This document shows, piece after piece, positions 18,845 to 22,880 of a DNA stretch of 32,000 nt. Source of the stretch: Candidatus Heimdallarchaeota archaeon (lineage in GTDB: Archaea > Asgardarchaeota > Heimdallarchaeia > JABLTI01). A program made the position numbers and the translations under genes. The stretch's first letter is position 1, and each line of letters starts with the position of its first letter. The stretch is taken from NCBI GenBank assembly GCA_030614005.1, contig JAUWKS010000005.1:1-32000 (forward strand), written 5' to 3'. The notes beneath the pieces were generated by a model. The model saw only the letters and a list, made by a program, of their open reading frames with translations. It was not told the origin of the DNA and did no database searches.

Positions 18845-19147
18845 TTATTTATTATCAAGTTCCAATGGGAAAACAGTTGCAAGTGCGTTGTATATGGTTT
18901 GATTAACATAACTATCCGCATCTGAAAGCAGTAATTCAAGTACTTTTTGGAGTACAGTTCCATCAGAATCATTCACCGTATCAATTGTGATAATAGCTGA
19001 TAATGTTTGATGGGACGTATGAACATATTTTCCATCCTCAACTTCTTGATAACCTGCACTAACTAAAAGTTTGTGGATTTTTTTCAAATCTTTCTCCAAT
19101 TGTGGAGTTCCGATTCTAAGGATCATTGGTCTCTGTATATTACCCAT
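18845..19147 (-). CDS. Hypothetical 100-aa alpha/beta protein, probably co-transcribed with the Arf GTPase
   Basis: Strong SD AGGAGG; starts 13 nt after the Arf stop codon; no recognisable family. Confidence 0.65.
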   Translation of the reverse strand: MGNIQRPMILRIGTPQLEKDLKKIHKLLVSAGYQEVEDGKYVHTSHQTLSAIITIDTVNDSDGTVLQKVLELLLSDADSYVNQTIYNALATVFPLELDNK

Positions 19148-19160
19148 TGCTATTTTCCTC

Positions 19161-19700
19161 CTATAGTTTATCTAATTCAATGACTACCCATTGAATTGCT
19201 TCCTCTACTCCTATTCCTTGAGTTGCTACAGTTGGTTGTATATGCCAACTGCGATTTCCCATTTTTTCTAGATTATCTAAATGGCAAGCTCTGACAATCT
19301 CATCTAATCTCATACATCCTTCGATATCTTGTTTATTTGCAATTACTAATAAGGGGACATCAGGAAATTGTGGATCAAGCAGAACCTTCCAAAGTTCATT
19401 TTTTGCCTCTTCAATTCTTTCACGATCAGATGAATCGATAACAAATATTATTGCACTTGCACCCCGCATCAATGTTCCCCACAAACTGCGAAAATGCATT
19501 TGTCCACCAAGATCAAAAACACTTAGATTGACATTTTGTCTCTGCAAAACTTCTACATTGACACCTATCGTAGGAAGCGTCTCAATACTTTTCTCAAATC
19601 TAAGAAAATTTAAAATGGTTGTTTTACCAGCTGAATCGAGTCCTACAACTGCGATTTTAAATTGCTTTTTTTGCCGGAATAGTCTCTGTAAGAAGCTCAA
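19161..19700 (-). CDS. Arf-family small GTPase
   Basis: G1 GLDSAGKT, G2 PTIGVN, G3 FDLGGQ..FRSLW, G4 NKQD, G5 TVAT; N-terminal amphipathic helix MSFLQRLF; Arf-type FVIDSSDRERIEEA. Confidence 0.93.
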   Translation of the reverse strand: MSFLQRLFRQKKQFKIAVVGLDSAGKTTILNFLRFEKSIETLPTIGVNVEVLQRQNVNLSVFDLGGQMHFRSLWGTLMRGASAIIFVIDSSDRERIEEAKNELWKVLLDPQFPDVPLLVIANKQDIEGCMRLDEIVRACHLDNLEKMGNRSWHIQPTVATQGIGVEEAIQWVVIELDKL

Positions 19701-19879
19701 TGAAATCTTCCTCTTTGAGTTAAATATTAACTTTCTTCCTTTTACTTATATTGATATTTTGAAATATAAATGATTTACTTTATCACTCTTTATTTCTAAA
19801 TATTATTAATAAATCCATCTAAACCACCATTCTTTACTAAAGTATAGATGAAAAGTGAAATAAGCCTACATTGTGCAAT

Positions 19880-20629
19880 TTAAACAAGATTTACCGTAAT
19901 TTCTATTGTATCTAGCCTTTCATCGAACTTTACGATGCTTTTGCTATCTAAATTTCTGAGTGCTTTTAGGATAATAACAGGAGGTGTTTTTGAAACTGAT
20001 TTCTTTAGCTCATCTAAGCCGATTGCTTGTTTGCGGTATGCGAGCGTTGAAAGTATATCTACTTCTGGTATGTCGATACGAACTTCCTTCAAGAGGAAAT
20101 CCAATATGGGACTTACTTGAACATTTTGTTCTTCTTCTCTTAGTATTTCATCTAATTGCTCTTGTGCTTTCACAATTTGTTTATTCATACGTGTTTGAGT
20201 AATCTCTTTTTCCGAAGTTTTAGCTTTAATATTCTCTTTTAGTAGAACTATTTGACTTTCTGTTGAGGAAAGCTCGTTCTTTAGCTCATTATGATTCTTA
20301 TCAAGTTGTTCCATTTCTAGTGTCAATTTATTACTCTTTTCTTGTTCATCGGTTATACTCAATTTCGTACGTTCAGTTTGTTCTTTAAATGAGTTAATAT
20401 CACTGAGTAAATCCTTCTTCTCATTTTGAAGTTGTATTTCATCTCGCTTACGATTATTAAGATTATTTTCTAAATTATGGGCATTTTGTTCTGCCTTTTC
20501 TAAATATGAGAGAGCTTCATTGATTTCAAGAAGTGTTGCTTCAATCTTTTGATGAATGATTTGATCTAATTTTTCTAAGCGTTCCTTTTCAGTTAAAATG
20601 CTTCTTTTTAAGCTAACTAAGTCTGTCAT
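19880..20629 (-). CDS. Long coiled-coil protein with C-terminal winged helix (paralogue B, 249 aa)
   Basis: About 170 aa of charged heptad sequence, then PEVDILSTLAYRKQAIGLDELKKSV...IILKALRNLDSKSIVKFD (wHTH pattern). SD AGGAGG. Confidence 0.75.
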   Translation of the reverse strand: MTDLVSLKRSILTEKERLEKLDQIIHQKIEATLLEINEALSYLEKAEQNAHNLENNLNNRKRDEIQLQNEKKDLLSDINSFKEQTERTKLSITDEQEKSNKLTLEMEQLDKNHNELKNELSSTESQIVLLKENIKAKTSEKEITQTRMNKQIVKAQEQLDEILREEEQNVQVSPILDFLLKEVRIDIPEVDILSTLAYRKQAIGLDELKKSVSKTPPVIILKALRNLDSKSIVKFDERLDTIEITVNLV

Positions 20630-20642
20630 CCGGTATTTCCTC

Positions 20643-21389
20643 CTATAATTTTAGACTCCTTGTAATGATAATTGCACCTGTAGAAGAATCATAGGTAATA
20701 AGATTCCTTTTCATCAAACCTTCTAATGTTTTTATTATTAATGCATCTGAAATTCCAGTAATTTTTGAAATGGTGCTTAAATCAGTATTCTTTCGACCCT
20801 CTAGTGCATTTATTATCTTTAATTCATTAAATTCAACATGATTTTTCTTGATTAGATATTCAAGAGCCATTCTTTCCCCTTTTATTCTACTAATGGAATC
20901 TTTTTTCGCTTCAACTTTCTTTTCAAGTTCTAGAATTTTTATTTCACTAGAGCTAACAATTGATACAATTTCATTAGATATTTTTTTATTCTCTTCTGAA
21001 AAGTTGGAAAACTCATCTTTAGCTCCTGCAAGCTTATTTTTCGTTTCACCTAGTTCAGTATTGATCTCTCTGAGTCGTGTTTCTAATTTAGCTCTATTAT
21101 TAACTAGTTCCGATAAATTTGATTGCGTCTCTGATAATAGAGTTTCATTTGAATTCTTTTCTCCCTTCAGGGTTGAAACCTCTCGAGTAAGAGCATCATT
21201 ACTTGATTCATAAGCAGAAATTTCTTCTTTACGTTTCTTTTCAAAAATAATTTGTTCCTCGATAGGATTTTTCAAATCTTCTAATCCTTTCTGAGTCACT
21301 ATTATTTTATTATCAAATTCATCTTTTAATTCTTGAATTGTGAGATCTGATTTTTTAATTGATGTTTGTACTTCGGATATATCTGTCAT
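20643..21389 (-). CDS. Long coiled-coil protein with C-terminal winged helix (paralogue A, 248 aa)
   Basis: Start moved to ATG 21389 (MTDISEV; SD GGAG upstream). Coiled coil followed by NELKIINALEGRKNTDLSTISKITGISDALIIKTLEGLMKRNLITYD (wHTH). Ends 13 nt before paralogue B. Confidence 0.75.
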   Translation of the reverse strand: MTDISEVQTSIKKSDLTIQELKDEFDNKIIVTQKGLEDLKNPIEEQIIFEKKRKEEISAYESSNDALTREVSTLKGEKNSNETLLSETQSNLSELVNNRAKLETRLREINTELGETKNKLAGAKDEFSNFSEENKKISNEIVSIVSSSEIKILELEKKVEAKKDSISRIKGERMALEYLIKKNHVEFNELKIINALEGRKNTDLSTISKITGISDALIIKTLEGLMKRNLITYDSSTGAIIITRSLKL

Positions 21390-21566
21390 TAATTGATTAC
21401 ACTCCACTTGTCAATAGGTTTTTTTTTATGAAAAAGATTTCGTATCCAATAATAATAAGTAAAAGATATTAATAAATTAGAACTATTAACTAATAATTGA
21501 TTTCATGAAAACCTGAAAAAAAGGTGAAAATTGATTGAAATTTAATCATTTCAATCTTGTTAACCT

Positions 21567-22880
21567 CTAATCCATATAAACATGAGATGCCACTCGTTCC
21601 ATTATTTCAAGCATTGCAGGAGTATGTTTTGCTCTAATTGTGTTAACAAAATCATCAGATGGCAGATCAAGTTTTTTAATTTTAGCCCAATCTAGAGCAA
21701 TTTTCTCGATGAGAGAAACACGATTGACCAATAGTGAAACACATTCGCTATGTTTCTGTTTGGTCATTTTTTGAATTATATCGTTCATGTAAATTGATGA
21801 CTTGCCTTGGATAACTTTCTTTTTATCCATATCTAGAACAACTTCATTTGAATAATACTGTAACAATTCTCGATTAATTCGTATGATATCTGCATCTCGA
21901 GGATGAATAAAATCCGTGGTATAATTTACGATTCTAAGTTCTCTCTCTGGTGCAAAACATTGAATGGTATCAAGCAACATATTTAGTAAAACTTGATTCT
22001 TATCTGATTCTGGATCTAATATGATCAATAATAACTTTCTACTAACAATTGCATCAAAGACTTGATCCATACCTTTTTTGATTTGCTTAAGTAAGAATGG
22101 CATATTTCCTTTATCTGTATTTCTTTTTGTGACCTCTACTCCTGGAGCTCTTTGTGTAACTGGAGTTGATGGTTGCACTTGCGGTGTTGGAGTTGGTGTT
22201 TGCACTGTGGTCTCTACGGGAGTACTAACAGCAGCAGGAGCATCTGAAAAGGATTTGACTGAATAATAGACTTTGTTCCCCATTTTTGTGGTGTAAAGAA
22301 AACCAGCATTCAATATTTCTTGAATGTTTGCAACTGCTTGTTGAGCTGAACTTTCAGTCATTGCTATGACTTCTTCAAATGAAGCAATTTTGTTATCTAA
22401 TATTGAAAGAGCTGTTTTTTGCAATCTCTGAGGTAGTTCCATAACACTAAGAGTATCTAATCCTCTTCGACTACCGGATTTAGTCATTATTCTATTCTCA
22501 AAAGCACTTCGTAATTGGTCTAATTTTGCTTCAAATCCTTTGAAAACTGAAACATCATCACCCTGCCAACTTTCAATGTAATCTTGAGGAAAGACTGCAA
22601 AGAAAAGAGTTTCAAGTTCAGGGAGTAAAATTTCTAATATTCCTTCTTCATTCGGATTAGAACTAACAACAAATAATGTAGTTCCTACTTGCTTATAAGT
22701 AAGCTTTAAATCCCCTATCAATTCTTCATTTTGTTGTCCAAGAACAACTTTTTTTGATATGGTATCTATGATTGATTGAAAATCTCCCAAAGAATTTCCT
22801 TGAATAGGTGTGTGACCTGGTTCATAATTTTTGTTAATCAATGGAAGGTTATTTTTTAAAATTAACACTCGTTTTATCAA
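21567..22880 (-). CDS. Multidomain protein: longin domain + winged helix + Pro/Thr linker + DENN-like C-terminal domain
   Basis: aa 1-128 show longin topology ending in ESWQGDDVSVFKGFEAKLD; aa 141-209 are a wHTH (LPQRLQKTALSI...GFLYTTKMGNKVYY); aa 213-250 are a Pro/Thr linker; aa 260-437 resemble a DENN core. Domain calls made by eye. Confidence 0.6.
   Translation of the reverse strand: MIKRVLILKNNLPLINKNYEPGHTPIQGNSLGDFQSIIDTISKKVVLGQQNEELIGDLKLTYKQVGTTLFVVSSNPNEEGILEILLPELETLFFAVFPQDYIESWQGDDVSVFKGFEAKLDQLRSAFENRIMTKSGSRRGLDTLSVMELPQRLQKTALSILDNKIASFEEVIAMTESSAQQAVANIQEILNAGFLYTTKMGNKVYYSVKSFSDAPAAVSTPVETTVQTPTPTPQVQPSTPVTQRAPGVEVTKRNTDKGNMPFLLKQIKKGMDQVFDAIVSRKLLLIILDPESDKNQVLLNMLLDTIQCFAPERELRIVNYTTDFIHPRDADIIRINRELLQYYSNEVVLDMDKKKVIQGKSSIYMNDIIQKMTKQKHSECVSLLVNRVSLIEKIALDWAKIKKLDLPSDDFVNTIRAKHTPAMLEIMERVASHVYMD

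Follow-up and report, generated by a model that had tools for sequence, protein, structure and literature searches.

Which of the genes that surround an Asgard Arf GTPase act together with it? We address this question at a locus on a contig (JAUWKS010000005.1, assembly GCA_030614005.1; C73 in our numbering) from a 3.6-Mb Asgard metagenome-assembled genome that is 90% complete; the window is the whole stretch of 32,000 nucleotides (nt) that was analysed. Within it, five minus-strand open reading frames (ORFs) stand in succession, separated by spacers of 13, 179, 13 and 159 nt. They encode a 100-amino-acid (aa) protein (p100), an Arf GTPase, two coiled-coil/winged-helix proteins (CC249 and CC254) and a protein with longin, winged-helix and DENN-like domains (p437). 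A sequence-only reading had located these five consecutive genes correctly and had taken them for a single set of GTPase, regulator and effector. We find little in favour of such a single set; a predicted complex supports binding between Arf and the 100-aa protein. On balance, we consider it probable that the locus juxtaposes three units of different age, not one operon, and that Arf and p100 are a GTPase-partner pair.

Work by two groups has established that the Arf proteins of Asgard archaea are true switches that bind membranes. Zhu et al. screened 52 Asgard proteomes by structure and obtained no usable homolog of a eukaryotic Arf guanine nucleotide exchange factor (GEF) or GTPase-activating protein (GAP), from which the authors concluded that native Asgard Arf regulators are probably structurally distinct (PMC11914678). 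Another paper raises the question of whether the FLCN/SMCR8-like longins of Asgard archaea have ArfR or Rag GTPases as their partners (PMC12290439). The present locus sets a candidate partner, p100, beside one of the two crystallised Asgard Arfs, GerdArfR1, and a longin-DENN gene 2 kb upstream of that Arf. To our knowledge, no native partner of an Asgard Arf is known. The new element is thus a candidate native pair for an Arf that already has structures and assays, and since GerdArfR1 constructs and crystals exist, the prediction for p100 can be tested at once.

The Arf GTPase and the gene coupled to it

The two genes that carry the argument are the following.

19161-19700, minus strand: Arf, 179 aa (ORF; Pfam Arf)
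18845-19147, minus strand: p100, 100 aa (ORF)

The 179-aa protein matches the Pfam Arf family (PF00025) with E = 1.9e-52 and 177.7 bits (cut-off 22.3), and its G motifs are complete and kept in all orthologs: the P-loop GLDSAGKT, T44, the switch II motif DLGGQ with Gln67, and NKQD. Its N-terminal amphipathic helix is MSFLQRLFRQKK, and the second residue is Ser, not Gly. A search of the PDB matched the protein over its full length, at 82% identity (E = 1.8e-98), to 8OUN and 8OUM, which are the GDP and GTP forms of GerdArfR1 (GenBank NHJ47629.1; Vargova et al., bioRxiv 10.1101/2024.02.28.582541, Nat Microbiol 2025). A Ser at position 2 has likewise been reported for GerdArfR1, and the stretch MSFLxRLFRQKKQ, nearly invariant among the orthologs, is identical to the helix-forming segment of 8OUN. 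GerdArfR1 comes from another species of the same family and has the same amphipathic helix, all G motifs and the same gene context. By sequence, the window Arf is an ortholog of GerdArfR1.

The crystal structures and yeast assays of GerdArfR1 revealed an amphipathic helix and an interswitch toggle, and membrane binding in yeast required both GTP and the helix (10.1101/2024.02.28.582541). The toggle and the GTP-dependent membrane binding are experimental results for this 82%-identical ortholog, and would extend to the window Arf by likeness. The preprint contains no neighbourhood analysis, and the downstream coupled protein and the DENN and coiled-coil neighbours go unmentioned in it. That neighbourhood can be read from a metagenome contig that we reached independently, through a p100 homolog (L039, VIKN01000081.1): it encodes the exact 8OUN sequence, in the order 432-aa gene, 248- and 249-aa genes, Arf, 103-aa gene, Kae1 and Sua5.

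Orthologs of the Arf, 73-92% identical, occur only in one family, which we call f1 and which apparently corresponds to Gerdarchaeales. Elsewhere in the class, the best matches reach about 43-46% identity and do not surpass the paralog that the genome itself carries on contig C9. About 35 ORFs of the genome match the Arf query at E < 1e-3. In a second family, f3, the closest relatives of the window Arf (38-46% identical) are tandem pairs of Arf paralogs about 80 nt apart (L092 4859-5983, on G033 C38, with the same arrangement in other f3 genomes). On a contig of f3 type (L041 14552-15886), an unannotated 262-aa gene starts 7 nt after the gene of a 179-aa Ras/Arf-like GTPase, which makes this a further case of a GTPase closely coupled to an uncharacterised protein.

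The p100 gene begins 13 nt after the Arf stop codon, with a GGAGG ahead of it. In every locus examined, p100 lies directly after Arf with a gap of 5-19 nt, which bears out the earlier description of it as a coupled ORF; Arf and p100 are probably co-transcribed and translationally coupled, as judged from this spacing. No such coupled small gene was found beside an Arf paralog of this genome or beside the tandem Arfs of f3. We collected 41 homologs of p100, all at least 55% identical and none functionally named; they come from bins labelled Heimdallarchaeota, Asgard-group or Gerdarchaeota, apart from two that are apparently mis-binned. A profile search, which included a second paralog termed p100B, found the family in all 12 f1 genomes searched, most of which have two copies, and in none of 70 other genomes of the class. 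The paralog p100B is 28% identical to p100 and occurs once in nearly every f1 genome (for example, G000 C76 29084-29374, which is L091 5082-5396).

The AlphaFold2 (AF2) model of p100 has a mean predicted local distance difference test score (pLDDT) of 81.7 and shows an alpha/beta protein of topology b-a-b-b-b-b-a, in which the first strand and the C-terminal helix are nearly invariant in the homolog alignment. No structural relative stands out: Foldseek gave E of at least 0.014 against the PDB and at least 2.4e-3 against AlphaFold Database clusters, and the best VIA Z score, 8.7, is at background level. The nearest shapes, which are leads only, are the N-terminal domain of spermine synthase and a MoaD-related protein (Z 8.7), MoaD_arch (TM-scores 0.62/0.68) and residues 764-932 of DEPDC5 (Z 8.1). 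No protein of the roadblock/LC7 fold is among these top matches, all of them at background level. MglA-MglB and similar prokaryotic pairs likewise combine a small GTPase gene with a co-encoded small regulator, and p100, at about 100 aa, is predicted on the switch face of its GTPase. Unlike the MglB-type partners, p100 does not appear to have a roadblock or longin fold, and it is known here from sequence and model.

A predicted complex of Arf and p100

We modelled Arf with GTP and Mg together with p100, using alignments that we supplied ourselves, in three runs and alongside three controls. The interface score (ipSAE) was 0.65 (runs 0.68, 0.62 and 0.65), versus 0.00 for the best of the controls; the partner's pLDDT did not fall below 78, and 84% or more of the contacts recur between runs. 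At this mark, the tool's calibration recovered 58 of 80 solved complexes and passed 2 of 110 mismatched pairs, counts that apply only roughly to Arf-p100 owing to its own alignments and the GTP/Mg ligand. No solved complex resembles p100, so the result does not reproduce one already known for this protein. Arf-p100 is the only pair of the locus with direct, though computational, support for binding.

In the predicted contact, p100 strand 8-13 meets Arf beta2 (44-51), and p100 helix 77-93 meets switch II (70-81). The first beta strand of p100 would thereby dock on the beta2 edge strand of Arf, and its conserved C-terminal helix would lie on switch II and cover the canonical effector patch. The predicted p100 interface (residues 6, 8-13, 77-78, 83 and 86-93, among them R6, D78, Q83 and N87) coincides with the nearly invariant residues. 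The Arf side comprises the interswitch and the switch II effector patch and includes V47, F62 and L77, positions which, from our own alignment, we take to be equivalent to the hydrophobic effector triad F51/W66/Y81 of Arf1. Altogether, the model suggests that Arf and p100 are likely a GTPase-partner pair. The 100-aa protein could then serve Arf as a native regulatory or effector subunit, sensing its nucleotide state or setting it, whether as a GAP, a GEF, an inhibitor or an adaptor.

The coiled-coil pair, p437 and the spacers between the probable units

The remaining features of the locus lie upstream of Arf on the same strand.

19805-19822, minus strand: conserved intergenic 18-mer TTAGATGGATTTATTAAT, 106 nt upstream of the Arf start codon
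19880-20629, minus strand: CC249 ("DN" type), 249 aa (ORF), 13 nt downstream of CC254
20643-21407, minus strand: CC254 ("UP" type), 254 aa (ORF)
21505-21566, minus strand: terminator-like hairpin and T7 run, directly after the p437 stop codon
21567-22880, minus strand: p437, 437 aa (ORF)

CC254 consists of a coiled coil of about 170 aa and a C-terminal winged helix; because its orthologs align only from residue 5-7 of the annotated ORF, translation probably begins at the ATG at 21389, which would give a protein of 248 aa. In CC249, conservation is highest in the C-terminal winged helix (aa ~175-249). The two proteins are paralogs, as had been proposed, though the pairwise BLASTP match is not significant (E = 0.37): comparison of their profiles with hhalign gave a probability of 99.6% and E = 6e-24 over 240 columns. 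In a maximum-likelihood tree, the UP clade splits from the DN clade with support 100/98, and in 16 sampled families of Asgard archaea UP still precedes DN. These results indicate a single UP/DN duplication that would have preceded the divergence of the sampled families.

The pair's profile was found in 181 of 250 Asgard genomes and in 24 of the 28 families sampled, versus the one family that holds the Arf orthogroup. In five families of the class, the two genes are always UP then DN, adjacent or overlapping, with no Arf or p437 within 8 kb. No neighbour common to families emerged among the loci compared; the genes alongside vary and include ABC ATPases, Cdc48/Hsp20, radical SAM and arrestin-like genes. 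Because one distant homolog of the DN type scores above the Pfam cut-off for TrmB (26.9 bits, cut-off 25.6) and also matches MarR and IclR, the terminal domain is, by sequence comparison, an ordinary MarR/TrmB-type winged helix-turn-helix and not a golgin-type (GRIP/GRAB-like) GTPase-binding domain. The sequence-only reading had likened the pair to golgins, that is, to Arf effectors. Since the pair is phylum-wide and has no conserved neighbours, it is, on this distribution, not an Arf-specific effector. We regard it as an ancient Asgard-wide unit whose distribution indicates no relation to Arf, which is the second new point of this analysis. CC254 and CC249 would probably form a heterodimeric rod with a function of its own, independent of Arf.

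With about 245-255 aa per protein, the pair (window 19880-21407; loci L056-L090) looks like a core Asgard heterodimer; public records call its members hypothetical or, automatically, "chromosome segregation ATPase". Searched against the PDB, the family profile matched nothing but generic coiled coils such as myosin and keratin, and the coiled-coil Pfam matches of the family are scattered over 89 families, with CCDC93_CC not among the recurrent ones. We also considered a Commander-like reading, with p437 as the DENND10-like protein and the pair as CCDC22/93-like, and rejected it, the weak CCDC93_CC and CCDC22_CC matches being coiled-coil noise. In one genome of another family (f4), the pair is followed, 94 nt downstream, by a Ras/Rab-like GTPase (L085 6997-7563, G022 C7). 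A link between the pair and GTPases through this locus was discarded, as the adjacency is not kept in a genome of the same genus (L089).

p437 itself has no Pfam match, and an exhaustive search of 1.84 billion representatives returned only 47 relatives. Its AF2 model (pLDDT 88) comprises a longin domain (1-131), a winged helix (143-207), a disordered Pro/Thr-rich linker (213-247) and a DENN-like alpha/beta domain (248-437). With the full-length model, the top Foldseek matches were DENND1B, C9orf72/SMCR8, FLCN and DENND10, at a probability of about 1.0. By VIA, the longin domain (topology bbabbba) resembles that of VAMP7 (Z 14.4, root-mean-square deviation (rmsd) 2.3, 117 residues); aa 257-436 resemble the C-terminal domain of FLCN (3v42_B; Z 14.4, rmsd 3.2, 171 residues), and the DENN-like domain also resembles DENND10 (Z 13.3) and SMCR8 (Z 11.7). 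The earlier longin/winged-helix/DENN-like assignment is thus borne out by the model. The homologs give sub-threshold Pfam matches only (Folliculin_C 1.5e-3, C9orf72-like 3e-3 and a faint SMCR8_C).

Eukaryotic longin/DENN proteins regulate small GTPases. FLCN-FNIP, C9orf72-SMCR8, DENND10 and DENND1B share with p437 an N-terminal longin and a C-terminal DENN-like domain; unlike them, p437 carries a winged helix and a disordered linker between the two. A GP motif marks the GAP-type longins FLCN, NPRL2 and SMCR8 (Traffic 2025, PMC12290439). At the start of longin strand beta2, where this motif would stand, p437 has N-N-L-P and its orthologs have L/Q/V/K/F/H/T-P or S-I, never G-P. As regards a catalytic arginine finger, no invariant Arg was found between beta3 and alpha2 (aa 45-80) of the longin in the p437 orthologs, nor a conserved one in the beta3-beta5 region, a comparison made without residue-level superposition; conservation of Arg is seen at R4, R124 and R130. 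Full-length orthologs of p437 are confined to f1.

The architecture of p437 is not new in kind, as Liu et al. 2021 (preprint 10.1101/2020.10.19.343400) already reported Asgard DENN proteins, FLCN-like longin-DENN proteins in Heimdallarchaeia, and an operon of a LAMTOR1-like roadblock gene, a Rab-like GTPase gene and a DENN gene. That operon likewise places an Asgard DENN gene near a small GTPase gene. The window differs from it in that the GTPase is an Arf and not Rab-like, a roadblock gene is absent, the DENN gene is parted from the GTPase by two genes and a terminator-like element, and the arrangement is limited to one family, whereas the operon is conserved across Asgard archaea.

A 767-aa paralog of p437 with the same longin-winged helix-DENN layout occurs in f1 (G000 C67 25275-27575, locus L034), and a homolog of it has a faint SMCR8_C match; the 437/767 size pairing recalls the FLCN-FNIP and C9orf72-SMCR8 heterodimers. 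Two further candidates were rejected. Specific homology of the p437 winged helix with those of the coiled-coil proteins found no support (hhalign probability at most 3%), and matches to p437-family genes near the coiled-coil pair in f2 and f3 were not significant: in G016 the match covered the generic longin part only, and in G058 it fell below the genome-wide threshold.

The spacers suggest where these units end. A T7 tract on the minus strand at 21516-21522, noted before, is present and is preceded by a hairpin with a 9-bp stem (dG -13.3 kcal/mol, z -2.7 by RNA folding); T-rich tracts stand at the position after p437 in orthologous loci too. The spacer between p437 and CC254 holds its own conserved motif upstream of CC254, different from the one upstream of Arf. 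The latter is the 18-mer, whose core, GATGGATTTATTAA, is kept in nine loci of the same genus or of the GerdArfR1 contig within otherwise diverged spacers, and which takes a degenerate TATA-like form in the second f1 genus. A regulon search found no other copy of it with 0-1 mismatch in the genome. For the Arf-p100 unit, the 18-mer is a candidate B recognition element (BRE)/TATA promoter or a candidate site for a regulator. A scan for bacterial-type promoters and terminators, a method not applicable to archaea, gave fewer sites than shuffled sequence. The hairpin with its T7 run and the two distinct upstream motifs agree with the earlier caveat that up to three transcription units may be involved.

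Competing readings of the gene order

The block Sua5-Kae1-p100-Arf-CC-CC-p437-CbiQ-MobB is collinear throughout f1, in eight genomes of the same genus, in a second genus and in metagenome contigs. In the window, Kae1 and Sua5 follow downstream in the same orientation, and CbiQ and MobB lie upstream in divergent orientation. A neighbourhood kept across Asgard genomes, which had been expected of a five-gene module, is not what we find: the five-gene order is conserved only within f1, and unrelated flanks are kept equally well. Outside f1, orthologs of Arf, p100 and full-length p437 were not found. Because unrelated housekeeping genes are kept too, synteny within f1 is no proof of function. On one metagenome contig (L040), two bPH_2 genes, one of them on the opposite strand, stand between CC249 and Arf; Arf-p100 and the upstream motif remain intact, the 18-mer thus staying with Arf where Arf is split from the coiled-coil pair.

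Several points weigh against three separate units and an Arf-p100 pair. The five genes lie on the same strand and stay adjacent throughout the family despite coiled-coil identities of 39-55% and p437 identities down to about 53-66%, an adjacency compatible with a lineage-specific functional cluster. By analogy with its eukaryotic counterparts, it is plausible that p437 acts on this Arf. The transcription units are drawn from DNA sequence, and the sequencing runs listed for the stretch are of DNA, from cold-seep and marine-sediment metagenomes. The complex model was built on shallow alignments of 12 and 30 rows, mostly from one family, and its score expresses model confidence, which supports binding and is not a measurement of it. 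Conserved residues on the Arf face are uninformative, since every GTPase keeps its switch regions. Finally, p100B adjoins HdrD-like, DUF389 and PAP2 genes and no GTPase.

In a rival reading, gene order is purely inherited and no neighbour of Arf binds it, p100 included; p100 would be a small protein without relation to Arf that happens to be encoded on a common mRNA, and the complex prediction would be a false positive. The surroundings of p100B fit this, as do the other Arf paralogs of the genome and those of f3, which have no coupled small partner, and the p100 fold, which has no GTPase-related relative, the best being MoaD_arch-like and at background level. In the calibration, 2 of 110 mismatched pairs did reach the mark, and the Arf-p100 run differed from the calibration. 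However, Arf and p100 are coupled at 5-19 nt in all loci, the rearranged L040 included; all complex controls scored 0.00, and the predicted interface joins the most conserved p100 residues to the canonical Arf effector patch. We consider this reading unlikely.

We hold it similarly improbable that the five genes form one module, with p437 as the GEF or GAP, the coiled-coil heterodimer as effector or tether, p100 as cofactor, and the ancient pair recruited secondarily. Such a module would account for the shared strand and for an adjacency that has outlasted strong divergence in all 11 genomes of f1 and on three metagenome contigs; p437 has the fold of the GTPase-regulating FLCN, SMCR8 and DENND proteins; p437, Arf and p100 all apparently arose in the same family around an older pair; and in L085, from another family, a Ras-like GTPase follows the coiled-coil pair. 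However, Kae1, Sua5, RadA, CbiQ and MobB are equally collinear, so that synteny does not discriminate, and the L040 insertion parts CC249 from Arf. The coiled-coil pair is phylum-wide with varied neighbours, and the L085 adjacency is lost within its genus. The conserved motifs upstream of Arf and of CC254 differ, and p437 is followed by a terminator-like element and itself has neither the GP motif nor a conserved Arg in the longin hairpins. Moreover, all observations come from one lineage and amount to one evolutionary event. The link between p437 and Arf comes down to adjacency within a single family.

A bolder version, in which p100 is the first native Asgard Arf regulator or effector, with a fold unrelated to Sec7, ArfGAP, RP2 and the longin GAPs and binding the GerdArfR1 switch/interswitch, and in which p437 and the coiled-coil rod join it in a Gerdarchaeales-specific module around the ancient pair, we regard as very doubtful.

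Under the favoured arrangement of three juxtaposed units with an Arf-p100 pair, p437 could plausibly be a separately terminated regulator or scaffold for one of the ~35 small GTPases of the genome. Two more small-GTPase-like ORFs lie in the window itself, at 29162-29713 on the plus strand and 30661-31482 on the minus strand. In the rearranged contig (L040 4369-6126), one of the two bPH_2 genes also has a weak DUF7347 match and a faint HTH_24 match.

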